The notes under the pieces were generated by a model. The model was not told the DNA's origin. It searched no databases and saw nothing but the letters and a program-made list of their open reading frames with translations. Position numbers and translations under genes: made by a program. This document shows positions 15,188 to 31,159 of a stretch of DNA of 32,000 nucleotides, piece after piece (the stretch's first letter is position 1; each line of letters begins with the position of its first letter). The stretch is taken from assembly GCF_000008465.1 (NCBI RefSeq), contig NC_006512.1, positions 1,710,001 through 1,742,000 on the forward strand, in the 5' to 3' direction. Source of the stretch: Idiomarina loihiensis L2TR (GTDB lineage: Bacteria > Pseudomonadota > Gammaproteobacteria > Enterobacterales > Alteromonadaceae).

Positions 15188-16105
15188 ATGGCGATAAGTA
15201 CCAGAACACGGATTACTTTACGTGCAATGGAGCAATTTATTGCAGTAGCAGAAGAATTACACTTTCACCGTGCTGCAGAACGACTGAATATGTCACAGCC
15301 TCCTCTTACCAGTGCTATACGTAAGCTGGAGGATGATATTGGTGTTACATTGATTGAGCGAGGGAAACGCGTACTTGGATTAACTCCTGCGGGAAAGAAC
15401 TTTATTGATGAAGCACGTGAAACTCTTAGGCAAGCAGAACAAGTCGTCACGGCCACACAAGATGCAGCTGCCGGACGAACAGGTTTAGTGCGTCTGGGTT
15501 ATGTGGGAAGCTCACTTTATGGGAGATTACCTGATGTCATTCGTGATTTTCGGCAGAGTCATCCGGACGTACGTCTTGAGCTGAAAGAGGCAACTACCGC
15601 AGCGCAGGTCGCAGCACTACGCAATAACGCATTAGATGTTGGCATTTTGATTCCACCTCTTGTGAATGCTGAAGATATTGAACAGATACCATTTGACTCC
15701 GATCGCTTGTGCTTAGCTATTCCGAAAGAGCATCCCCTCAATAAACGGTCAAATTTGACACTGACTGACCTTTCAGAAGAGCCTTTCATATTATGGCCAA
15801 TGGTTGAGGGGCGCGGCTTTCATTTACAGGTTATTCGACTATGTGCAAACGTTGGTTTTGTGCCGACGGTTACTCAGGAGGCTCACGGGATGCACGCGGT
15901 ACTGTCGTTAGTGTCTGTTGGAGCAGGAGTATCCGTGGTCCCTCAAAGTATGAGTGGCTTTCGAGGAGACCAGATAAGCTATCATCCATTAACGGGTTCT
16001 GAACCCGAATTCGATTTGACCCTAAGTCACCGCCACTTATCGCCATCAGCAAAGGCATTCGTCCGCTCTATTGGAGTAAGAAGCGTACGTTCAGGGCAAC
16101 CTTAA
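15188..16105 (+). CDS. LysR family transcriptional regulator
   Basis: LysR HTH region (FIAVAEELHFHRAAERLNMSQPPLTSAIRKLEDDIG) plus a substrate-binding domain. ATG at 15188 with GAGG 6 nt upstream. Confidence 0.85.
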   Translation: MAISTRTRITLRAMEQFIAVAEELHFHRAAERLNMSQPPLTSAIRKLEDDIGVTLIERGKRVLGLTPAGKNFIDEARETLRQAEQVVTATQDAAAGRTGLVRLGYVGSSLYGRLPDVIRDFRQSHPDVRLELKEATTAAQVAALRNNALDVGILIPPLVNAEDIEQIPFDSDRLCLAIPKEHPLNKRSNLTLTDLSEEPFILWPMVEGRGFHLQVIRLCANVGFVPTVTQEAHGMHAVLSLVSVGAGVSVVPQSMSGFRGDQISYHPLTGSEPEFDLTLSHRHLSPSAKAFVRSIGVRSVRSGQP

Positions 16106-16150
16106 TGCGGCTAAGGAAGCCCGGAAGATAGTGGAAGGTACTTTGGAAGA

Positions 16151-16873
16151 TTAAGGGGTTATGCCTAAATCAGAACCAACGCTATCACTCTTCAACAATG
16201 AGTCCGTAGTTGAAAGACTAAGTTCTGATGCAAGACATTCTGCCCGGTCTTTTGCGTTGGCTACCGACACACGGTGTCTATCATCACCAAACTCTTGGTA
16301 TTCAGAGACTATTTCATACATTGTATCCACGCCTAAATATTTGCTCAGTGTTCGTAGGTGTGGTGCCAGGTGACCAGAACCTTCTCTTACTCCTCCCTTT
16401 TCAAAACCAAACTCGCCGCTGGAAGTCACTGTTATCAATGTCTTACCTGAAAGTATAGGCTGCAAAGGAAAATCCCCTCGTGAAAGATCAAAATCAAAGG
16501 TTTTGTTTATCCGCACAATTTGATCAAACCAAGCTTTTAGCTGCGCCGGCATTCCGTAGTTATACATGGGTGATGAAATTACGATAACGTCGGCTGCTGA
16601 CACTTCATCTATCAGTTTATCTGATAACGCCAGTCTCTCTTTCTGCTCTGGAGTCCTTTTATCATCGGGGGTAAACACCGCACCAACCCAATCCTGATTA
16701 ATAAAATCCGGCGGGTTCACTCCAACATCACGATAAATATACTCATCTTGAGGCCGATGCTGTTTCCATGTCTCAATAAATCGTAGAGCGATACTCTTCG
16801 ATATAGAATTGTGGTCTGGATTCGTGTTGCTTACGGCTCTCACGCTTGAATCTATATGTAATAACGTGCTCAT
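16151..16873 (-). CDS. azoR: FMN-dependent NADH-azoreductase / flavodoxin-like quinone reductase
   Basis: MSTLLHIDSSVR... and IVISSPMYNYGMPAQLKAWFDQIVR are AzoR/AcpD signatures. The track ORF (to 17113) is trimmed to the ATG at 16873, with AAGG 8 nt upstream; the ATG at 16879 is an alternative. There is a C-terminal extension relative to the AzoR length I recall. Confidence 0.8.
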   Translation of the reverse strand: MSTLLHIDSSVRAVSNTNPDHNSISKSIALRFIETWKQHRPQDEYIYRDVGVNPPDFINQDWVGAVFTPDDKRTPEQKERLALSDKLIDEVSAADVIVISSPMYNYGMPAQLKAWFDQIVRINKTFDFDLSRGDFPLQPILSGKTLITVTSSGEFGFEKGGVREGSGHLAPHLRTLSKYLGVDTMYEIVSEYQEFGDDRHRVSVANAKDRAECLASELSLSTTDSLLKSDSVGSDLGITP

Positions 16874-16951
16874 GTTCATTACCTTAGTTGCTGAATAACA
16901 GGAGCTATTTTGTGAGTCTGAGCAGAGTAAGACAAACGAGAAAAATACATT

Positions 16952-16976
16952 TATAGATGAATTTAACTCATCTATA
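16952..16976. promoter_or_regulatory. Perfect 9-bp inverted repeat in the azoR/lysR divergent region (candidate LysR-type binding site)
   Basis: TATAGATGA-atttaac-TCATCTATA. It lies 12 bp upstream of the LysR start and about 80 bp upstream of azoR. It contains a T-N11-A-compatible core. Confidence 0.5.
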
Positions 16977-16988
16977 CTATTTACTAAG

Positions 16989-17864
16989 TTGATTACTGGC
17001 CAGGGGATAACATTGCAGGTTTCGCTACAAGCACTTAAAGCCTTTGAAGCGGCAGCCCGTCGGGGAAGTTTCAAGTTGGCTGCAGAAGAGCTTTCGCTGA
17101 CACCAACAGCCATCTCTCACCACATTAGCAATCTGGAAGGTCGGTTAAATGTAAACTTGTTTCACCGACAAGGAAGGCGAATAGCGTTAACCGGGGCTGG
17201 TAGAAGATTAGCTGAAGCGACCTCTGACGGATTCCGGAAAATTGAAAATTCTCTGGAAGAGCTGCTAACCGCCGGCAATACAGTTAGAGTAACAACAACA
17301 TCATCATTAGCTGCTATGGTGCTTATTCCTTCGCAGAATGAATTTGAGCAAATCAACCCTGGTATTTCTGTCGAAATATCTACCGGTGAGTCGGTCGACA
17401 ATCAGTCCTACATTATTCCAATTCGTTTTGGTGATTCTACAGCCATTGAGCCGTCAGATGTCATTAAATCCGAATCCTTCAATGTTTTCGGTGCTTCTGG
17501 AATGAAGCCCCCTTCCTGGTCAAATGAGCCCATTACCCTTTTTACCACTGAATGGAAAAATAAAGCGTTACCAGACTCGCCTTTAGAGGCCTGGTTAGCA
17601 ATGAATGGACTGGAAGGGTCGAATATTAAACTCAAAAAATTTGACCAGGAGCTGTTCGGGATCCAGCAGGCTATGGCAGAAAATGGACTGGTATTCTGCT
17701 CTACGACGCTTACAAAACGGTTGCTAAACGCTAACCTTCTCCAGCAATTTAAAACCCAGCCGGTAGAATCTGATTTGTGCTATTACGTACCAAATAAAAG
17801 AAGCTTCGAAACCAGAAGTGCCGTTCCGTTTTTAGATTGGATTGAGGGGCTTTTAAGCCCTTAA
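16989..17864 (+). CDS. LysR family transcriptional regulator
   Basis: HTH region (LKAFEAAARRGSFKLAAEELSLTPTAISHHISNLE). No ATG precedes the HTH, so a TTG start at 16989 (or the in-frame TTG about 24 nt downstream) must be used. Confidence 0.8.
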   Translation: MITGQGITLQVSLQALKAFEAAARRGSFKLAAEELSLTPTAISHHISNLEGRLNVNLFHRQGRRIALTGAGRRLAEATSDGFRKIENSLEELLTAGNTVRVTTTSSLAAMVLIPSQNEFEQINPGISVEISTGESVDNQSYIIPIRFGDSTAIEPSDVIKSESFNVFGASGMKPPSWSNEPITLFTTEWKNKALPDSPLEAWLAMNGLEGSNIKLKKFDQELFGIQQAMAENGLVFCSTTLTKRLLNANLLQQFKTQPVESDLCYYVPNKRSFETRSAVPFLDWIEGLLSP

Positions 17865-18043
17865 CCCATAATGCAAAGGAGCACGTAGCAATAAAAAACG
17901 ACAGAAACGACACGAAAATTATTCAGAAACTTAACTGTGTGGAATTTTATATGACTCTCGGCAACTCCAATTCGCTCGCTGAGAACTCAGTTGATATACT
18001 GAAAAACTAATCCGATAAATCTAAAACGTGGACGCTACTCAAA

Positions 18044-18604
18044 ATGAATAGCTTTGTGGTCATCGCAACATTTTTTACCGCATTAACAGCAGCCATTTCA
18101 TGCGCGGTAGCCTGGCGCCAGCATGCATGGAATAAAAGAAACTACTTAGCAAGTGTGAAACCCTATTTATCAGACTTCCTTGATGAAAAAACAAACCCGC
18201 TAATATTTTCCTACACGCTTACCAATAAAGGGTTGGGCCCTGCTTTAATTCAAAGCTTCGAGATGACTTGGGATGGAAAAGCCATAACGATGAAAGAGCT
18301 TCAATCCAAACTAGAGGAAAAGCTCGGTAAAAGATTCGGCGTACAAGTTGGTGAGTTTTCTGAACACTTTGCTATAGCAGCAAATGAGAGCTTTTTAGTA
18401 ATCAGTTTCTGGCAGTTAGAAGATGACAAAAATCTACAATTTTTGGTCTCGCCGGATAGCATAAAAGAAGTAAGACAAGATTTGCTCAAGTTCTGCCGCT
18501 TAAAAGTTAGCTATAAGTCTTTCCTATCAAATGAAGTACAAGTCTTTGAAACAACTTTGCTTGAAAGCCTGGCTGACGAAGTGAAGAAAAACAGTGCCGC
18601 ATAA
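18044..18604 (+). CDS. Hypothetical single-pass membrane protein (no recognisable domain)
   Basis: 186 aa. N-terminal hydrophobic helix (FVVIATFFTALTAAISCAVAW) followed by a soluble region. It lies 43 bp upstream of the helicase gene with no intervening hairpin. Translation signals are weak. Confidence 0.55.
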   Translation: MNSFVVIATFFTALTAAISCAVAWRQHAWNKRNYLASVKPYLSDFLDEKTNPLIFSYTLTNKGLGPALIQSFEMTWDGKAITMKELQSKLEEKLGKRFGVQVGEFSEHFAIAANESFLVISFWQLEDDKNLQFLVSPDSIKEVRQDLLKFCRLKVSYKSFLSNEVQVFETTLLESLADEVKKNSAA

Positions 18605-18647
18605 ATAATGTCAGTGCCGATCCATACATTTTTCATCACAACACGGA

Positions 18648-21386
18648 ATGTTTATGTTCTCACTAATAGTAAATGGCCAGGATAAAACCCGACAAATAGC
18701 TGATTGGAAAATATTTAAAGGTTCAGAGGGACAGTTCGTTCTTAAGTGCATCTTTCGCTCTGATAAAGCCTTCTTTCGTTCTCTAGAAGAATGTGAGATC
18801 ACTCCTACTGAAGAAGTCAAAGACAAGCTTCTTATAACAAAGAATGGCTCCAAAGTAAGTACTATCGAGAGTGCGTTAATCTACGCTAATAAATATGCCA
18901 TTGTTCACTACCCTGGCTCATCAGAGCCATATCTAATGAAGATGGACGCTATCGAATTTACTGATACGGCCAACATCAAAAACGGCACCGTCTTTAATTA
19001 TTTTACCTCAGTAACCAATGCTCGAATGAACCTAGCTCCCTCGGGAGAAGAGCGGGATATTGCCGAGAACATAGCTAAGCAACTAGAAAAAATAGAACCT
19101 TATCCAGAAACTGCTCTATTCTCTTATTGCACAGGAAAAAGTCAACAAAGGGCCAAGCCGAACGGTCTAGTATACCCGTTCGGAATTAACTTAAGTCAGC
19201 AACAAGCTGTCCAGCAGGCTTTTTGCTCTCAAGTCAGTATTATTGAGGGGCCGCCTGGTACAGGGAAAACACAAACAATACTAAATATTCTCGCTAATAT
19301 CGCTTTACGAGGGGAAAAGGCAGCCATTCTTTCCAATAACAATCCTGCAGTAGAGAACGTTTACGAAAAGTTAGAAAAAAGTAGTTTAGGTTACTTAGCT
19401 GCCAAATTAGGTAGTGTTCAGAATCGAAAAGACTTCTTCGCAAGTTTACCTATGAAGCCAAAGGAAAAACCTAACCAGGCTAAGCCACTTGAAGATATAA
19501 CAAGCCAAATACAACGACTAGAGCAGCTTCTCAGCGCTCAAAATGAAGCATCTAAGCTACGAAGCCAAATCAGTGAATTAAAAATCGAGCGCAAACGTTT
19601 GTTAGGTTGGCAGGACAAAAGTATTCATAAGCCGATAATGCAACCGAACAAATATAAGCTGTCTCCACAAAAAATAACGGACTTTATCGCTTACCTTACC
19701 GATATTTCTGAAAAGCGCATTACGCTATGGAATCGGCTCGAACTATGGCTACATTTCCGTATTCTCAGAACCAAACTCTTTAATACATGGGAGAAGCGAA
19801 AAAGCGTCATTCATGCGCTTCAGCTTCTTTATTACGACTACGCCTTACAAGAGAAAACAGCAGCATTAAAAACGCAAGAAGAAATACTTGAGCAGAGTAA
19901 CTTTAAGGTTTTGCTCGAAACAGTTACTAATTCCTCAATGGCGTACCTGAAAAGCTCACTATTTGATCAAGTATCATCCCATGAAGACTTTGATTCAGAA
20001 AATTACCGTCAAAATTTTCATCAATTTTTGCAGCGTTTTCCTATAATGGGTAGCAGTACTCATTCGATTATAAACTCTCTCGATCAAGGAACGATCCTAG
20101 ATTTTGCCATCATCGATGAAGCTTCTCAGCAAGATATTATTCCTGGGATACTAGCTTTAGGATGCGCGAGAAACGTGATCATTGTAGGTGACCGAAAACA
20201 GCTTCCACATATTCCTAATCAGACGGGAATACTACCGCCAAGTGACATGTATGACTGTGAAAAACACAGCTTGCTTGAATCTTTTACTCGAGTGTTCAGC
20301 GGATCCATTCCAATAACTTTGCTTAAAGAGCATTATCGGTGTCACCCTAAGATCATTCAGTTCTGTAACCAACAGTTCTATAATAATGAACTCATTCCAA
20401 TGAGGGACGACACCGCTAAAAATCCTCTGGAGCTTATCGTCACAGCTAAAGGCAATCACGCACGAGGTTACTCTAACAAAAGAGAGTTAGAATCACTCAT
20501 TAAAGTTCAGACTGAAAATGAAGGAGCGGGATGGGACGAAAGGAATAGTAAAGGGTTCATAGCACCATACAATGCACAAGTTAACCTATCTCGCTCTCAC
20601 TTACCGACAGACTTTGTTAGAAAGACAACGCATAAATTTCAAGGACGCGAGTGTGATGAGATTGTGTTTTCGACCGTCTTAGATAAAAAGCTAAGCAATC
20701 AAAGTGAACGTAAGATTACGTTCGTCGACAACCCTAACCTTGTCAACGTTGCCGTTTCTCGTGCTAAAGAGAAGTTTACTCTAGTCACTGGCGACAATGT
20801 TTTTACTGCTGGTAACAGCAGTATCGCCGCATTAGTTCGTTATATGGAGTATTACGGTGATCAATCAAGTATATATCACGCGCCTGTTATTTCTTCCTTC
20901 GATTTACTGTATGACGAGTACGATCGGTCACTAGAAAAGCTAAGAACAAAATTAAGACCTGAAGACTCACAGTACAAGTCAGAACAAATCGTTGCTCAAG
21001 AACTGCGTCAGTTGTTATCCGACGAAAAGTATAGAGAGTTTACGTTTCATGCTGAGGTTGCGCTCATCCAGTTAGTCTCTCCCAACTTAGAGGACCTGAC
21101 TCAAGCCGAGCTCACATTCATGAGGAATCTATCGAGATGTGACTTCGTTTTCTATTACAGAGTTGGCAAGCAACCATTAGCTGTTATTGAGGTTGATGGT
21201 GGACACCATAACACTCCGGAGCAAAAGCGCCGAGACGCGCTTAAAAATAGTATTTTAGAGAAAGCTGGACTCCCCCTACTTCGTTTGAATACAGATGAAG
21301 CCCATGTCTCTAGAAATATAAGCTCTTTTCTTGATACTTTAAGGCAAGCCTGTGATAAGCCGAACGATCTCGAACTCACCGGCTAA
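18648..21386 (+). CDS. Upf1/DNA2-like superfamily-1 helicase (AAA_11/AAA_12 type) with a C-terminal DUF2726/Vsr-like PD-(D/E)xK nuclease domain
   Basis: Walker A (IIEGPPGTGKTQT), Walker B (IIDEASQ), motif III (VGDRKQLP), HYRCHP, QGRECDEIVFS and motif VI (VNVAVSRAKEKF). The C-terminus CDFVFYY...LAVIEVDGGHHNTPEQKRRDALKNSILEKAGLPLLRL matches the DUF2726/DUF559 pattern as I recall it. The first ~190 aa have no recognisable domain. Confidence 0.85.
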   Translation: MFMFSLIVNGQDKTRQIADWKIFKGSEGQFVLKCIFRSDKAFFRSLEECEITPTEEVKDKLLITKNGSKVSTIESALIYANKYAIVHYPGSSEPYLMKMDAIEFTDTANIKNGTVFNYFTSVTNARMNLAPSGEERDIAENIAKQLEKIEPYPETALFSYCTGKSQQRAKPNGLVYPFGINLSQQQAVQQAFCSQVSIIEGPPGTGKTQTILNILANIALRGEKAAILSNNNPAVENVYEKLEKSSLGYLAAKLGSVQNRKDFFASLPMKPKEKPNQAKPLEDITSQIQRLEQLLSAQNEASKLRSQISELKIERKRLLGWQDKSIHKPIMQPNKYKLSPQKITDFIAYLTDISEKRITLWNRLELWLHFRILRTKLFNTWEKRKSVIHALQLLYYDYALQEKTAALKTQEEILEQSNFKVLLETVTNSSMAYLKSSLFDQVSSHEDFDSENYRQNFHQFLQRFPIMGSSTHSIINSLDQGTILDFAIIDEASQQDIIPGILALGCARNVIIVGDRKQLPHIPNQTGILPPSDMYDCEKHSLLESFTRVFSGSIPITLLKEHYRCHPKIIQFCNQQFYNNELIPMRDDTAKNPLELIVTAKGNHARGYSNKRELESLIKVQTENEGAGWDERNSKGFIAPYNAQVNLSRSHLPTDFVRKTTHKFQGRECDEIVFSTVLDKKLSNQSERKITFVDNPNLVNVAVSRAKEKFTLVTGDNVFTAGNSSIAALVRYMEYYGDQSSIYHAPVISSFDLLYDEYDRSLEKLRTKLRPEDSQYKSEQIVAQELRQLLSDEKYREFTFHAEVALIQLVSPNLEDLTQAELTFMRNLSRCDFVFYYRVGKQPLAVIEVDGGHHNTPEQKRRDALKNSILEKAGLPLLRLNTDEAHVSRNISSFLDTLRQACDKPNDLELTG

Positions 21387-21430
21387 GTCAGTTAATATCC
21401 ATACTCTATTCTGAATAGCGGACGAAAAGC

Positions 21431-21859
21431 ATGTCTAAAAGTTTAAATCCCGAAAAAGCGCTCATATGGCGGATTATCCACCGAGATAATCTCGAGTGGA
21501 TTCTTCAGCACGGGGTTTACGCTTCAAGCAGTGAATATAAGTCTGATGACTGGGTAAGTATAGGCAGTGAAGAGCTCATTGATAAGCGGTCGAAGAAAGA
21601 GGTCCCAATTGCGCCAGGAGGAATGCTAAGTGATTATGTTCCCTTCTATTTCACTCCTTTTTCGCCGATGCTTTACAACATAAAAACAGGGCGAGGTGGT
21701 GTAGTCCAACGCAACAATGATGAAATCATCATACTCGTTTCAAGTCTGTACGACGTTAATGAGGCTGGTTTAAACTACGTTTATACAGACAGCCATGCAT
21801 ACTCAGCACTAGCTAATTACTACTCCGATCTGAACAGCATTAGAACGATCGACTGGGAC
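21431..21859 (+). pseudogene. darT: darT 5' fragment (DUF4433 ssDNA thymidine ADP-ribosyltransferase toxin, codons 1-143), interrupted by an IS3-family element
   Basis: IWRIIHRDNLEWILQHG, PGGMLSDYVPFYFTPFSPMLY, LVSS and YTDSHAY line up with DarT motifs recalled from Thermus DarT. Genuine sequence ends at ...IDWD. The remaining track-ORF residues are read-through into the IS. Confidence 0.85.
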
Positions 21860-21917
21860 GGGTTCTACCCAGATTTTACGGACACATCCAAAACGAGGCA
21901 TAATATGCCCATAAGGA

Positions 21918-22211
21918 GTGTTCATGACCAAACGAAAAAAGTACAGCCCAGAGTTTAAACGTGAAGCCGTAGCGTTGACAAAACAGCCCGGTGTAAGTTG
22001 TCGCCAGGTGGCTATAGAAATCGGTATTAACCCCAATTTGCTCAGCCGTTGGCGGCGTGAAGCCGAGCCATCCTCTAAAGAAGCTTTCAAAGGCTCAGGT
22101 AACCCCCGCGACGAAGAAATGGCGCGGCTTAAACGCGAGAATGCCCGACTTAAAAAGGAACGGGATTTTTTGCGAGAAGCGGCAACGTTCTTCGCAAAAG
22201 AGTCGTCCTGA
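21918..22211 (+). CDS. IS3-family transposase OrfA (HTH)
   Basis: [18 protein letters not shown]...[27 protein letters not shown] is typical IS3 OrfA with a leucine zipper. The slippery heptamer T_TTT_TTG (22166-22172) is in the correct phase. AAAAAG at 22152-22157 is an alternative slip site. Confidence 0.9.
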
Positions 22212-22258
22212 GATATCAGGCGATAGAGCGTTGCCGCGATAAATTTCCGATACGCTTA

Positions 22259-23065
22259 ATGTGTCGATGCCTGCAAGTGTCACCCAGCGGATATTACGCC
22301 TGGGCAGTACGACCGGCCAGTGCCCGTGATGTGGAAAATCAGCGCATTCTGACCCGCATTAAGGAGATCCACGAGGACAGTGGTGGTGTCATTGGCGCAC
22401 CACGTATGCATGAAGATCTGTCTATTGAAGGTGAACGACTGAGTCTGAATCGGGTTGCCCGCTTAATGGCCGTCAATGGCGTTCAGGGCTGGCCTCGTAA
22501 GAAAGGACGAGGCCGAAAGCGACAGGCCGCTAGGCCCGAAGGTCTTAAAAATCATCTGGCACGTGACTTCACAGCGGCAGAGCCTGAAACTAAATGGGTC
22601 ACCGATATTACCGAGGTGACAACCACCGAAGGCAAGTTGTTTCTGTGCGTTGTGCTAGACTTGTACAGCAAGCTGATAGTGGGCTGGTCCATGCATCACC
22701 GTCAGGATCGGTACATGGTCATTCGCGCAGTGGAAATGGCCGTCTGGCAACGAACAAGTAGTCAGCCTGTGATTTTACATTCGGATCGCGGCGCTCAATT
22801 TACCAGCGGTGATTATCAGCGTGCTCTCAAATTTAATAACCTGATCAGCAGCATGAGCGCAGTCGGTCATTGCAGCGACAACGCTGCCTGTGAAGGATTT
22901 TTTGGGATACTGAAGCGTGAAAGAGTGAATTACCGCCGCTATCGAACAAGAGATGAAGCACGTTCAGACATCTTTGATTATATTGAACGGTTTCATAATC
23001 CAAGAATGCGTCGTAGACTGGCAAAACAAGATCAGCAGTTTAGTGCGATTTTAAACCGTCCGTAA
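22259..23065 (+). CDS. IS3-family transposase OrfB (DDE integrase core), expressed as an OrfAB fusion by -1 frameshift
   Basis: The frame is -1 relative to orfA and open from 22154 (…[31 protein letters not shown]). DDE region WVTDITEV..., [10 protein letters not shown] and [17 protein letters not shown]. Confidence 0.9.
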
Positions 23066-23081
23066 TAACGGGGTAGAACCC

Positions 23082-23297
23082 GACCTCATCCAACGGCGTG
23101 ACTTTAAACGTGACTTCAATGACTTAGGCAAGCTCGATAGATACCAGGCAGAGGCTTTAATCCACCGTCACTTCCCTATTACACTTTTAAAAGGTATTGT
23201 GTGTTATGACGAAAAAGTAAAACAATTTATCGAACAAAAAGTCGGTAACTACGGTCAAAATATAAAAGTCATAAACCGCCCAGATTGGTACTTTTGA
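23082..23297 (+). pseudogene. darT: darT 3' fragment (final 70 codons plus stop)
   Basis: After the duplicated GAC, the frame reads LIQRRDFKRDFNDLGKLDRYQAEALIHRHFPITLLKGIVCYDEK...INRPDWYF*. It contains the QAE(F/A)L catalytic-Glu motif and the terminal P.WY(Y/F). It is in frame with the 5' fragment once the IS and one GAC copy are removed. Confidence 0.85.
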
Positions 23298-24364
23298 TGC
23301 TCAATTATAAGACAGGCAATTTATTAGAATCTGAAGCTGAAGCCCTTGTTAATACCGTAAATACCGTCGGTGTTATGGGTAAAGGGATCGCTTTGATGTT
23401 TAAAGAAAGGTTTCCTGCAAATATGGAAGCCTATTCTCAGGCCTGTAAAGAGAATAAAGTGAAGACAGGCAAAATGTTCGTTACTCACACCAACGAACTG
23501 GTCAACCCTCAATGGATCGTGAACTTTCCGACAAAGCAACATTGGCGTGCCAAATCAAAAATAGAATGGATTGAAGAAGGGTTAAAAGATTTAAGAGCTT
23601 TCATTATTGATAATAACATTCGCTCAATTGCTATCCCTCCTCTAGGAGCAGGCAATGGTGGCTTAGACTGGGATAACGTTCTTCCCCTGATACAAAAGCA
23701 TCTGGGCGATATGACTGACATCGATATTCAAATTTATCAGCCTACGCAGCAGTACCAAAACGTCAGCAAACAATCTGGAGTTGAGCAACTAACAGCTGCT
23801 CGAGCAATGATTGCAGAGCTGATAAGACGTTACTGGGTATTAGGTAATGAATGTACCCTACTTGAGGTGCAAAAGCTTGCATGGTTCCTGCAACGAGCCA
23901 TACAGCAAGAAGGGAAAGAGAGCCCACTTAGACTGACCTTTCAGCCCAGAAATTACGGACCCTATGCCAGTGACTTAACGCACTTATTAAATCGATTAGA
24001 TGGCAGCTATTTACAGTCGGACAAGCGTATTCCCGACGCAAAAGCGACAGATGTGATTGCCTTTAATGATAATAAGCGGGAAACCGTTGCAGCTTTCCTA
24101 CAAGCCGAAGCAACTGAGTTTCAATATGCATTGGACAAAGCGACAGAAATTATTGAAGGGTTCGAATCTCCCTTTGGACTCGAGCTGCTCGCGACAGTTG
24201 ACTGGCTGATGACTGAGGGGAACGTAAATCCAGACGCGGATAGTGTAATAGAAGCATTAACCTATTGGCCTGCTGGTGCTAAATGGGCGCAGCGCAAACT
24301 AAATATGTTTGATAAAAAGGCCATCTCAATTGCTATCACCGCATTAATGAGAAAGCTGCACTAA
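23297..24364 (+). CDS. darG: DarG antitoxin (N-terminal macrodomain ADP-ribosylglycohydrolase plus C-terminal DarT-binding domain)
   Basis: The start is reset to the ATG at 23297, which overlaps the darT stop (TGATG). The macrodomain motifs are [34 protein letters not shown] and [15 protein letters not shown]. Confidence 0.85.
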
Positions 24365-24555
24365 CAAGCCCAAGTAGCTTGCCCAATCGAACTGGTATTA
24401 CCCTGACTACCCATACTCGATGAGAGTGCGACCCAAACTGTCGCACCATTCCTCCAAACTTGAACCCGTGACATCAATGCTATCCGTGGCATAATGACTG
24501 CAAATGAGCGATAACAATAACGCTTAGTATCAGTTGTACGGGGACGTTAATAACA

Positions 24556-24846
24556 ATGACAACGATTAGCCAGGACAGCATCAACAAAGCACTCTGGAAC
24601 GCTTGTGACACCTTTCGTGGTACAGTCAGTGCCGACACCTATAAAGACTTCATTCTGACCACTCTCTTCCTAAAATACATCTCGGATGTATGGCAGGACC
24701 ATTACGACCAATATGCAGAAGAGTATGGTGATGAGCCACAGTTCATCATTGAAATGATGAAAAACGAGCGCTTCGTGTTACCGCGTGATGCCGAACTAGG
24801 AGAGTGTAAAGGACAGGTTGGATCAGATGGCTGGACGGATTTTTAA
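24556..24846 (+). pseudogene. hsdM: Type I restriction-modification methyltransferase HsdM, N-terminal stub only
   Basis: LWNACDTFRGTVSADTYKDFILTTLFLKYISDVW...NERFVLPRDA is the HsdM_N domain. Recognisable sequence ends near 24790. No N6-methyltransferase catalytic domain, hsdS or hsdR follows. Confidence 0.75.
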
Positions 24847-24883: not shown

Positions 24884-25888
24884 ATGGCAAAGATCGGTCG
24901 CAATGAACCCTGCCCCTGCGGCAGCGGTAAAAAATATAAGCGATGTTGCATGAGTGGTGTTGGTAAACAACAAGCTGACTTTGTTGATAGCATCGAGCAG
25001 ATGTTGGCGATGAATCCTGATCTTTCGATGGACGAGCTGAATATTATCGCCGAGCACCAATCCAATAAAATTAATACCACACCTCACAAAGACTTCTGCG
25101 GCCTGGCTCCTGGGCAAGTTAATAACTGGCTTTATGCCCCTTTTCCCGAGTTAGAAGGCATCACGATAAATACGCCATCTGATTTAAGCACCAGTCCGGT
25201 AATGCGTTATTTAAAACTGATGCTGGAGACAGCATTAGCTAACGGTGGGCAGATTAAGGCGACCGCCAAGGGGAATCTCCCGGCGGCGCTAGTGAAAGAA
25301 GCCAGCGCATTTTTACCCGAATTTGCTGTTGCTCCATTCGAGCGGGCCATCAGCATTAGTGAATTTGCAGGCGCCAATGAAGACAAGTTTAACGCACTGC
25401 ATTACTGCCGTGTTCTTGCTAAAATCGCGGGGATTTTTAAGCTAAAAAGTAATAAGTTCCACGTCTCTGCCTGGGCTAAACACCAATACCAGCGAGCTGG
25501 CCTGGAATCGTTTTTCCCCATCATGCTAGAAACAGCCGTTTACAAATACAATTGGGGTTATTTTGACCTTTGGGAAAATGAAATTCCTTTACAGCACTTC
25601 TGGCTATTCATGCTGTGGCGACTTCAGCATCATAAGTCACACGAACGGTTGGTGGATGAGATGATTCAGGCATTTCCTGATTTGCTCAATGAACTCTACG
25701 AGGAAGAATACATGTCGGACAGAGACAAACTTGCCGTTTTGATTGAATCACGCTTTATTCATCGCTTTCTGCAATTCTTTGGATTTGTCATGGTTGACCC
25801 TAGGCGCGTTATTGATGGTAAACGAGTGGCGGCCCAGGTGACCTGTTTACGGTCAATGCACGAGACGTTTAACTTCAGGATTGAATAA
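24884..25888 (+). CDS. SEC-C motif (SecA C-terminal-type zinc-binding) protein of unknown function
   Basis: The N-terminal [18 protein letters not shown] is the SEC-C metal-binding motif. The remaining ~300 aa have no domain I recognise. AAGGTG ribosome-binding site 8 nt upstream. Confidence 0.7.
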
Positions 25889-25991: not shown

Positions 25992-26577
25992 ATGATTGAG
26001 ATAAAAGAAATTATCAGGCCCTTAGAGCAAGGCAGCACTCAGCCCTTTTTATGTGTCGCCGATGATGGCAAAAAATACGTTGTTAAAGGACAACGAGGAG
26101 GCACAAGACTCTCTCGGCGAAGATGATGCGTTTGCTTCCGAATTTATCGATGGTCTTCAAGAAGTCAACTATCAACTAATGATGAACTTTGGACAGGAAG
26201 TAGCTGCAAACTTATTTATATTCGATCTTTGGGTCCGTAACGGCGATCGTACTTTGTCAATGAAGGGCGGCAACCCAAATGTATTCTATCAACCTGCCGA
26301 GCAGCGCTTTTGGGCTTTAGATCATAACTTGGCATTTGATGATAGCTTCGAATTTTACGACTTTACTAAAGATCACCTCGGCAGAGACGCCTGGATACAA
26401 CAGCGGGATTTATTATCGCGACAACTTTATCAAGATCGCGCGAGTAACTGTCTTCGACAGCTTGATGAAATATTCTCGCTGGTACCAGATGAGTGGGATC
26501 TAACAGATGACTTTATGGAACAGATTCGGTTAACATTAGGTCTAATAAACCATGACAACTTCTGGGAGCGGATATAA
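25992..26577 (+). pseudogene. HipA-like kinase (the type that partners DUF3037), frameshifted and probably internally deleted
   Basis: Frame 0 gives MIEIKEIIRPLEQGSTQPFLCVADDGKKYVVKGQRGGTRL and then stops at 26124-26126. The rest (…AFASEFIDG…FDLWVRNGDRT…GNPNVFY…ALDHNLAF…) continues in the +1 frame to 26577. The combined length of about 195 aa is shorter than I expect for the family. Confidence 0.6.
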
Positions 26578-27380
26578 TGAATACGTTATGCATGTATGCC
26601 ACTGTGCGTTTTATGCCGTTCGCTGAAACCCAAGAGTTTGCTAATGTTGGTGTGGTCGTTTGTGCCCCCGATACCGGTAAAATTAAGTTTAAACTTGCAC
26701 GTAAGCGTTTTGGTCGTGTTAATCAATTCTTTGAAGACCTCGATGGCAAGTTGTTCGGCAGCACATTACAACTTTTAGAGGCCGAACTTAATCGCCTAAA
26801 AGAATTCGCCATAGACAAGCCAGGAAAAGCTACCGCTGCGTTATTTCAGGAGCTGACCCGGCACCGAGAAGGCGTGATCTCTTTTGGGGGAGTTAGCACT
26901 GCAGTAGTTAATAACATTGACGATAAGCTCATCGAATTGTACGAGCATTATGTCGAAAGAAGCTTCCTTAGCGAAAAGTATCGCGAGAGCATAATAGAAC
27001 AAAACATTCGTCAACTGTTGAAACGTGAAAATGTAAAAGACTTTAAGGCTCAAGTGCTCGAAACAAAGCTCAGTGAATTCAAGCTGCCATTCGTTAAAAA
27101 AAGTGCTAACAGTACAAAAGTCATTCGGCCTCTTGCGTTTGAACAAAAAACGCCATTAGCAGCCTACGAACATGCAGCTCAGTGGATAGATAGACTCACA
27201 CGCCTACAACATGAACAGATAGTGTTGCCTCACAACATGATGCTGGCAGTAGAAAAGCCAACAGACAAAGGGTTTGAAGAAGCGTACTTTGAAGCCGTTA
27301 ACATCGCTTCTCAAAGAGAGATAATTGTCGCTAACGCCAATGATTCTCCAGAAATTTTGAGTTTTGCTAATAACACGTGA
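26577..27380 (+). CDS. DUF3037 domain protein
   Basis: The N-terminal YATVRFMPFAETQEFANVGVVVCAP matches the DUF3037 signature (Y.v.r..P....EF.NvGvv). The ATG overlaps the upstream stop (TAATG). Confidence 0.7.
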   Translation: MNTLCMYATVRFMPFAETQEFANVGVVVCAPDTGKIKFKLARKRFGRVNQFFEDLDGKLFGSTLQLLEAELNRLKEFAIDKPGKATAALFQELTRHREGVISFGGVSTAVVNNIDDKLIELYEHYVERSFLSEKYRESIIEQNIRQLLKRENVKDFKAQVLETKLSEFKLPFVKKSANSTKVIRPLAFEQKTPLAAYEHAAQWIDRLTRLQHEQIVLPHNMMLAVEKPTDKGFEEAYFEAVNIASQREIIVANANDSPEILSFANNT

Positions 27381-29988: not shown

Positions 29989-30829
29989 GAGACTGTAAAA
30001 GATTTTGTGTAAATGACTGATTGCACTGTTAAATCCAATCCTAGTTCATGATCTCGAATTGCGCCATGGCCGGTTTCCAGTTGCGTATGGGCATCGTCCA
30101 CTTTTTCGAGGCCTGATGCAAGGCCAAGTACAACACATTCATGACGGCTTCGTCATTCGGGAATGACCGCCGCGTCTTGGTGATTTTGCGCAGTGACGCG
30201 TTTAGCGACTCAATGGCATTGGTGGTGTAAATAGCTTTTCGGATTTCTACCGGGTACTCAAAGAACACGCTCAGCCGCTTCCAGTTTGCACGCCATGAAC
30301 GGCTGATGGTCGGATGCTCTTCATCCCACTTTTCTGCAAACAGCTCGAGAGCCTGCTCGGCTTCAGCCCGTGTTGCTGCGCCATAAATCAATTTGAGGTC
30401 AGCTGCGATGGTCTTGCGTTGTTTCCAGTTTACGTAGCGTAGCGAGTGGCAAATTTGATGCACAATGCACAGTTGCACCTGAGTTTTTGGGTAAACCGCT
30501 TCAATGGCTTCCGGGAAGCCCTTCAGGCCATCGCAACAGGCGATAAAGATGTCATCGACACCGTGGTTTTTAAGCTCGTTCATCACGGATAACCAGAACT
30601 TAGCGCCTTCAGATTGTGCCACCCACAGGCCGAGGAGCCCTTTTCACCGTCGGTGTTAATGCCAAGCGCCAGGTAGACCGACTTATTTTGAACAACGCCG
30701 GAGTCACGGCTACGAACCACCAGACAATAGAGGTAAACGACCGGGTAAAGCTTTGTCAGTGGTCGATGTTGCCAGACCTTTACTTCGTCCATGACGGCGT
30801 TGGTCACCTGGGAAATAATGAATCGCCAC
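29989..30829 (-). mobile_element. IS256-family element remnant (3' part only), truncated by the adjacent IS3-family element
   Basis: It carries the 3' two-thirds of a mutator-type transposase gene. Both boundaries are approximate: the right limit is the inferred IS3 left end, and the left limit is a plausible terminal repeat (gagactgtaaaagattttgtg). Confidence 0.6.
30041..30829 (-). pseudogene. IS256-family (mutator-type) transposase, 5'-truncated and frameshifted
   Basis: Two overlapping track ORFs (30583-30891 and 30041-30622) join as ...[11 protein letters not shown] / [27 protein letters not shown] only if one base is restored near 30643. About 130 N-terminal codons are missing. The expected first catalytic Asp reads Tyr ([11 protein letters not shown]). 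Confidence 0.75.
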
Positions 30830-30874
30830 TGATTTGCTAGACACCTCATAGCTATAGATAATGGCATAAAAGAG

Positions 30875-31159
30875 GTGCTTATGAGTAACAACCGATACCC
30901 TGAAGAATTTAAAATCGAAGCTGTCCGGCAAATTACCGATAAAGGTTATTCTGTTGCTGACGTTTCAAGACGGCTCGATGTTTCCGTTCATAGTTTATAT
31001 GCCTGGGTTAAGAAGTACGGTCCAGAAGCAGAAAAACACGCAGCTCAAACCGAAGAGCAGGCTGAACTAAAACGTTTAAGAAAAGAGTTACAGCGTGTCA
31101 CTGAAGAGCGTGACATATTAAAAAAAGCCGCGGCGTACTTCGCGAAGCAGTCCGACTAA
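30875..31159 (+). CDS. IS3-family transposase OrfA
   Basis: [47 protein letters not shown]... contains the HTH and a leucine-zipper-like region. The slippery run A_AAA_AAA lies at 31120-31126, in phase. Confidence 0.9.

Follow-up and report, generated by a model that had tools for sequence, protein, structure and literature searches.

An IS3-family insertion sequence within darT and the probable orphaning of the DarG antitoxin in a truncated defence island of Idiomarina loihiensis L2TR

A stretch of 32,000 nucleotides (nt) from Idiomarina loihiensis L2TR (assembly GCF_000008465.1, contig NC_006512.1, positions 1,710,001 to 1,742,000; this whole stretch is termed the window) carries, at 21431-24364, a DarTG toxin–antitoxin module in which the gene for the toxin, darT, is split into two fragments by an insertion sequence (IS) of the IS3 family and is followed by an intact gene for the antitoxin, darG (Table 1). 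A first-pass annotation, which was made from the letters of the window, had already described an IS3-family element of 1222 bp with matching ends and a GAC target duplication after codon 143 of darT; all of these coordinates hold on re-reading. The structural account as a whole, by which we mean the anatomy of the insertion, the empty site, the family membership of the parts and the spread of the alleles, is uncontradicted by any evidence.

Table 1. Features of the interrupted darTG locus (positions in the window).
Feature	Position	Strand	Basis or remark
Leader upstream of darT, conserved with the canonical Idiomarina darTG cassette	21368..21430	+	Homology with L101-L104 and L115 from 21368
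darT 5' part, codons 1-143	21431..21859	+	Sequence reading
Left target-site duplication, GAC	21857..21859		Single GAC in empty-site contig L005
IS3-family insertion sequence, ISXc8-like clade, 1222 bp, apparently intact	21860..23081	+	
Left terminal inverted repeat, GGGTTCTACCC	21860..21870	+	Perfect core; imperfect match to about 21892
IS orfA, 95 amino acids (aa), HTH_Tnp_1	21924..22211	+	Pfam PF01527, E 8.4e-18
Candidate -1 frameshift heptamer T TTT TTG in the orfA/orfB overlap	22166..22172	+	Sequence reading
IS orfB, 268 aa from first ATG; HTH_21, rve, rve_2	22259..23065	+	
Right terminal inverted repeat	23071..23081	-	
Right target-site duplication, GAC	23082..23084		Sequence and comparison with L005
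darT 3' part, codons 144-213 and stop, carrying RYQAEAL with Glu166	23085..23297	+	
darG, 355 aa, intact; N-terminal macrodomain and C-terminal DarT-binding domain	23297..24364	+	
hsdM remnant, 96-aa open reading frame; homology ends at 24792, about codon 79	24556..24846	+	Pfam HsdM_N, PADLOC MTase_I, L101/L102/L115

The size of the insertion is set by the empty sites described below: 1222 bp plus a 3-bp duplication, with the GAC triplet standing on either side of the element. The 11 bp at the left end are the exact reverse complement of those at the right end and form perfect inverted repeats, beyond which an imperfect pairing extends over about 33 bp. When the 11-mer is sought in the window with at most one mismatch, two matches are found, both at the ends of the IS, against 0.13 expected, and two or more matches occurred in none of 100 shuffles. 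The deletion in silico of 21860-23084 results in a darT open reading frame (ORF) of 213 codons, in which the junction reads IDWD/LIQRRDF. Another pair of boundaries, based on the TG...CA ends at 21854 and 23088, was considered and rejected: the arms are out of register, there is no flanking duplication, and both the empty sites and the other copies of the element fix the ends at 21860 and 23081.

The state of the locus without the element can be read directly, since contigs encoding an identical DarG were looked up in public data. One of them, L005 (a Logan assembly of SRR25400305), carries an uninterrupted darT of 213 aa directly upstream of the identical DarG, and it aligns to the window over 16070-21859 and 23082-24562 in two segments that overlap by exactly GAC. 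Its darT is identical to the gene excised in silico at 644 of 644 nt, which confirms the 213-codon ORF that the first-pass annotation had reconstructed, and the sequence downstream is identical at 1481 of 1481 nt. The site is also empty in L101-L104, four relatives that are more diverged (95-98% identity). L005 and the window show about 100 differences over the core-like flank 16077-17586 (about 6%), seven over 17587-21859, and none downstream. On the basis of this diverged flank and of a 1-nt deletion in its helicase gene, L005 is, as far as the alignment goes, no revertant but carries an ancestral-type allele on a different background. The fall in divergence from about 6% to about 0.1% occurs near 17.6 kb, and the segment that begins there, which comprises a 186-aa ORF, the helicase gene and darTG, seems to be common to both lineages through a recent transfer or recombination. 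The deletion in L005 lies in an A5 run of this helicase/DUF2726 gene (window 19132-19136; L005 about 3066) and splits the product into 171 and 752 aa. The window thus has an intact helicase and a broken darT, and L005, the one contig in which this context includes an unbroken darT, has the reverse; this may be a coincidence, given that two lineages are compared.

The family tests for DarT were run on the reconstructed 213-aa protein, the gene in the window being interrupted. Residues 2-213 align with positions 2-196 of the 196 in the PADLOC DarT profile (E 6.6e-70); the Pfam PF14487 profile is matched over 1-201 of 201 with 191.8 bits (cut-off 22.5), and the NCBIfam toxin_DarT equivalog NF048013 over 1-204 of 204 with 248.5 bits (cut-off 150). 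The only matches to DarT in the PDB at E <0.001 are those of Thermus aquaticus (7OMV; residues 4-213 on 4-210, E 1.6e-30) and Mycobacterium tuberculosis (7YK3_A; E 1.4e-16). An alignment with 11 homologues, which are 56-97% identical, is gapless from the first few N-terminal residues to the C-terminus, and this includes the junction, where D141, W142 and Q146 are invariant. The earlier claims that the reconstructed ORF aligns end to end with the family and that its junction is gapless are therefore borne out, as is the claim that the QAE motif downstream of the break is retained: Glu166, the catalytic residue of the ARTT motif, lies in the invariant RYQAEAL sequence of the 3' fragment, where it is separated from the N-terminal 143 residues. 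QAE is present in all 12 natural DarT homologues aligned. Glu166 aligns with position 160 of 7OMV, which is read there as QAA (QAAFL), and this alanine is the E160A catalytic substitution of the crystallised T. aquaticus DarT. On the strength of these matches, the interrupted gene is darT, and the module would be of the thymidine type (DarTG2-like, with a macrodomain antitoxin), the base specificity being suggested by similarity.

In its present state, the darT ORF runs into the IS and stops at 21958, so that the product would be a chimera of 175 aa made of DarT residues 1-143 and 32 IS-encoded residues. The 3' part has no start codon at its own 5' end, and no in-frame ATG, GTG or TTG was found by reading upstream of Glu166 in this fragment (23085-23180).

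The antitoxin gene, by comparison with its family, is undamaged. Residues 1-352 of DarG align with positions 1-327 of the 329 in the PADLOC DarG profile (E 6.1e-128), and the NCBIfam antitoxin_DarG profile NF048014 is matched over 2-338 of 338 with 445.5 bits (cut-off 250). The Pfam Macro domain covers residues 18-130; residues 1-151 match the T. aquaticus DarG macrodomain in PDB 5M31 (E 2.7e-49) and in 5M3I, and residues 185-350 match 7YK3_B, the C-terminal domain of M. tuberculosis DarG in the DarT–DarG complex. The stop codon of darT (TGA, 23295-23297) shares its A with the start codon of darG (ATG, 23297-23299). The first-pass annotation was thus right to describe darG as intact, macrodomain-bearing and overlapping the darT stop. 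This start now lies 232 bp past the transposase stop, and no obvious Shine–Dalgarno sequence of its own could be read upstream of darG. A search of the + strand from darT to darG predicted no terminator-like site, so read-through probably keeps darG transcribed. Upstream of darT, a perfect palindrome, CTATTC-T-GAATAG, lies at 21406-21418, 13 nt before the start codon, and is invariant in the five aligned loci (the window, L005 and three canonical cassettes); it may serve as an operator for the darTG(-hsd) operon.

How widely is the filled allele distributed? The exact 175-aa chimera is present on 11 public contigs, which include CP005964.1 (I. loihiensis GSL 199, according to a published table), a 1.06-Mb contig of GCA_003353435.1, and seven metagenome or read-set assemblies. 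Five more read-set or metagenome assemblies have either the right junction or a break located 30 or 48 nt inside the right end of the IS. These breaks presumably reflect a k=31 assembly-graph effect due to other copies of the IS in the sample, and the 48-nt offset fits a single-nucleotide polymorphism (SNP) that lies 18 nt from the end of the IS and separates IS variants. The filled allele is thus found in GSL 199, in GCA_003353435.1 and in at least ten metagenome or read-set assemblies, and these alleles are nearly clonal, with two SNPs in 13 kb. The first-pass annotation had called the insertion recent. The absence of substitutions in the flanks agrees with this; however, the allele is not private to one strain, and it has become fixed in a clonal lineage that has been widely sampled. 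In the Joint Genome Institute (JGI) metagenomes, a 15-base degenerate pattern for the junction returned chance matches only, with neither the filled nor the empty junction at any of 120 loci.

A few metagenome contigs are less regular. In L093 and L108, the left junction of darT leads into a variant of the IS and then into a right flank that is foreign; in L007 and L123, both darT and the IS show SNPs in a mosaic pattern. These contigs look like switches by the assembler between IS copies or strains, or else real IS-mediated recombination. In another metagenome contig of 1.3 kb (L122, at 1208-1288), on the canonical background flanked by LytTR, darT diverges after codon 156 into 81 nt, which gives a product of 179 aa. 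Neither the loci compared nor the metagenome contigs contain a match to these 81 nt, and L122 could be a second, independent disruption of darT or a chimera.

IS3-family elements are 1.2-1.5 kb long, have terminal inverted repeats, and generate target duplications of 3-5 bp. The element in darT has such features (1222 bp, an 11-bp perfect repeat core and a 3-bp duplication). The termini of the family are usually 5'-TG...CA-3'. Here, they are 5'-GG...CC-3', as they are in all of the relatives examined and in the ISXc8-family element. Hence, these ends are, by comparison with the relatives, a trait of the clade rather than a defect of the darT copy, and membership of the IS3 family rests on the transposase. 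The two genes, orfA and orfB, are in frames 0 and -1, the orfB frame being open from about 22154. OrfB has the triad D116/D176/E212, which corresponds to DD(35)E with a K at +7 after the E, and a fused OrfAB of 380 aa scores 365.7 bits on NF033516, the IS3 family transposase (cut-off 160). The fusion would be made by -1 frameshifting on T TTT TTG. A run resembling A AAA AAG at 22152-22157 is another possible site, but its heptamer (TAAAAAG) is imperfect, and the perfect T TTT TTG was preferred. The IS looks intact. In its left end, a short hairpin, AGGCATAATATGCCC (21896-21910), overlaps the -10-like CATAAT of a predicted transposase promoter and lies just upstream of the ribosome-binding site of orfA; it may damp the expression of the transposase from read-through darT transcripts.

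Comparison with other copies confirms the ends of the IS that the first-pass annotation had proposed. More than 15 other copies, 67-98% identical, have the same first and last bases and the same length, and for nine copies, which occupy eight different sites, the flanking 3-bp duplications are perfect. When one genome per species was scanned for relatives of OrfB, 559 were found, the closest of which is in an Idiomarina metagenome-assembled genome (OrfB 96% identical, DNA 94% identical). For relatives in Alteromonas, Marinobacter, Marinobacterium and I. baltica, the alignment has its ends exactly at 21860 and 23081, and several relatives are stand-alone contigs of 1221-1223 bp. The copies read in Idiomarina are 94-98% identical, all 1222 bp long, with the same ends, and lie at other sites, where tag, ttg, tta and tcc are duplicated; the duplications of more distant copies are gaa, gat and acg. 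An OrfA identical to that in darT occurs in 138 indexed blocks of the public collection, spread over many different locations. The IS family has been mobile in Idiomarina and has inserted at many sites. Copies in Idiomarina are often in accessory or defence regions. The same IS splits a beta-lactamase-family gene into 243 and 137 aa in L110 (GCA_025933435.1; duplication tta), and, among L105/L111 and L113, other copies are flanked by vsr and a gene for a DNA cytosine methylase (duplication tag) or lie next to a KAP NTPase gene.

The module belongs to a larger structure that is reduced in the window. In most of the Idiomarina contigs with a 97%-identical DarT, the order of the genes is darT-darG-hsdM(506 aa)-hsdS-DUF4357-hsdR, and this canonical cassette forms part of an integrative element that also carries genes for AlpA, RadC and an integrase. 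The window has in common with it only 21368-24792, which corresponds to the 63-nt leader, darTG, and the first 79 or so codons of hsdM. The cut hsdM is followed by an unrelated gene with a SEC-C motif (24884-25888), and the darTG cassette is placed behind a 912-aa superfamily 1 (SF1) helicase/DUF2726 gene. Judged by this alignment, the type I restriction–modification (R-M) part of the island is lost here, and darTG had already been reduced to a 2.2-kb remnant of a darTG/type I R-M island when the IS inserted.

Other genes in the window also look damaged. In a pair of genes at 25992-26577 and 26577-27380, that for a HipA_2-type kinase looks frameshifted: an ORF of 44 aa corresponds to profile positions 1-34 and another of 174 aa, in a different frame, to positions 64-240; the partner DUF3037 gene is intact, and the pair matches the PADLOC candidate system PDC-M66A/B. 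Further on, at 30041-31159, two pieces (30041-30622 and 30583-30891) of an IS256-family gene (Transposase_mut) lie on the - strand and adjoin another IS3-type orfA, which is on the + strand (30875-31159). The element has no GGGTTCTACCC ends, and the whole looks like the debris of nested IS elements at the island's edge.

The very probable explanation of the locus is that an IS3-family insertion into the darT of a DarTG module has left an orphan antitoxin and a null module in a decaying island. According to this explanation, the ISXc8-like element of 1222 bp would have transposed into darT and duplicated its GAC target. The break parts the first 143 residues, with the NAD-binding N-terminal part, from the last 70, which contain the catalytic Glu166, so that no active DNA ADP-ribosyltransferase would be made. 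The 5' half would be translated as the chimera that ends inside the left end of the IS, and darG is untouched but would have lost its translational coupling to darT. The module would then be null as a toxin–antitoxin or abortive-infection system, with the orphan antitoxin remaining, and the insertion would be one step in the decay of an island that was already truncated. We infer the loss of toxicity and of defence and the expression of darG; the insertion may have been selected or neutral. Several observations limit the functional part of this explanation. Scans of the window and of the canonical cassette gave no convincing promoter for darT. The copy of the IS in darT differs at 22-24 positions from the commonest variant sampled, and for this reason no donor copy was found among the copies sampled. 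Finally, there are no substitutions in the flanks, so a neutral recent insertion and a selected inactivation look alike. Selection, if any, would presumably have consisted of relief from DarT toxicity after the loss of the native operon context.

One alternative concerns a role for what is left, namely a selected domestication in which the knock-out was favoured and darG was kept as an orphan ADP-ribosyl-DNA glycohydrolase, used against addiction by the DarT of incoming darTG/type I R-M islands, which circulate in Idiomarina, or in the repair of other ADP-ribosyl-DNA damage. The filled allele does dominate among the contigs with the exact DarG, with at least 13 filled places against one empty; DarG is intact in all of the filled-allele contigs; Idiomarina often carries closely related darTG-hsdMSR islands that are intact (49 indexed blocks contain protein P0121); and an anti-addiction role has been established for other chromosomal toxin–antitoxin systems (PMC12548467), which offers a precedent. 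However, a lookup by exact DarG sequence would miss decayed copies of darG, and the near-clonality of the filled set means that its dominance may be the sampling of one clone. There has, moreover, been no time for decay, so the intactness of darG is uninformative about selection, and a darG that lacks an obvious Shine–Dalgarno sequence would have lost its coupling to darT. Domestication is therefore unlikely. Another version of selection, which we consider quite improbable, is that an active DarT became a liability once the cassette was torn from its R-M operon and placed behind a helicase–nuclease gene, that lineages resolved this conflict differently, and that DarG then provided immunity against incoming darTG islands. 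If this were true, the IS in darT (GSL 199-type), the helicase frameshift (L005) and possibly the break in L122 would be alternative solutions.

A reversible switch, in which precise excision of the IS restores darT and the population toggles its defence, might be suggested by the presence in public data of both the filled and the empty allele between flanks of the same sequence, and the first-pass annotation had spoken of an IS-mediated off-switch. IS3-family elements move by a copy-out-paste-in mechanism in which the donor copy stays, IS911, IS2 and IS3 being the cases studied. Since excision is not part of this mechanism, which leaves the IS in place, and since a 3-bp duplication is a poor substrate (almost none) for precise excision mediated by the host, such a switch is very unlikely. 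The empty site of L005 comes, as seen above, from another lineage, and no sample showed both alleles on the same background; any off-switch here would probably be one-way. It is less likely still that a C-terminal fragment, translated on its own, joins the N-terminal chimera to restore an active DarT. Both fragments are undamaged, and an in-frame GVG codon follows AAAGG in the 3' fragment, though downstream of Glu166; upstream of this residue, however, there is the lack of in-frame starts already mentioned, the only ORF that gene callers can make of the 3' fragment is a piece of 69 aa with a non-canonical start, and we know of no precedent for a split functional DarT. As for a misplacement of the IS into darT by repeat collapse, metagenome contigs do switch between IS copies (the foreign right flank of L093/L108, the mosaics L007 and L123). 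However, both junctions are present in the complete genome CP005964.1, in the independent 1.06-Mb contig and in many independent metagenomes, and these assemblies do not differ in the flanks or in the target duplication, which makes the chance of an artefact negligible. What is supported is a textbook case of a toxin gene knocked out by an IS in a decaying defence island, and a new example of a well-known event.

The importance of this case beyond annotation is small. In I. loihiensis genomes of the GSL 199 type, the two darT fragments should be annotated as one IS-disrupted pseudogene, and the DarTG that defence-system predictors will call here should count as an inactive system. With their identical flanks, the filled and the empty allele constitute a natural matched pair that could be used to study DarT toxicity, the expression of an uncoupled DarG, and the cost and benefit of DarTG in a marine bacterium. 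It is, in addition, a record of a clade of the IS3 family that has GG...CC ends, produces 3-bp duplications and has inserted in many places in Idiomarina.

In the searchable literature, no published description of an IS-disrupted darT or of an orphan DarG was found, and a search for an "ISIlo" name found nothing relevant. The known element closest in organisation is ISXc8 of Xanthomonas plasmids: the element in darT aligns with it end to end (1-1222 against 1224 bp, 67% identity), has the same GGGTTC...GAACCC termini and the same orfA/orfB layout, and has as its nearest annotated transposases those named "IS3-like element ISXc8 family". However, the DNA identity is only about 67-70%, so the darT element is a different IS, and its nearest copies, 94-98% identical, are in Idiomarina genomes and metagenomes rather than in the ISXc8 of Xanthomonas. 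With respect to the module, the DarTG systems of T. aquaticus, M. tuberculosis and enteropathogenic Escherichia coli (EPEC) resemble that of Idiomarina in having the toxin gene upstream and overlapping stop and start codons. The likeness to the T. aquaticus and M. tuberculosis proteins extends to the full-length alignment of the reconstructed DarT with its RYQAEAL catalytic motif and, for DarG, to the macrodomain (T. aquaticus 5M31) and the C-terminal DarT-binding domain (M. tuberculosis 7YK3_B). In EPEC, DarTG2 is associated with a type I R-M system (PMC12255303). There, darTG lies between hsdS and hsdR, whereas it heads the operon in the Idiomarina relatives, and the window retains of the R-M cassette only darTG and the first 79 or so codons of hsdM. 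When darTG2 was cloned in E. coli unregulated, without its repressor, all of the clones gained inactivating mutations or truncations (PMC12255303), which offers a precedent for selection. Unlike the modules of all three of these organisms, that of I. loihiensis has its toxin gene interrupted by an IS and is presumably inert, and in this, it resembles the general inactivation of toxin and defence genes by IS elements, in which a gene that is toxic or costly is knocked out and its partner stays intact.

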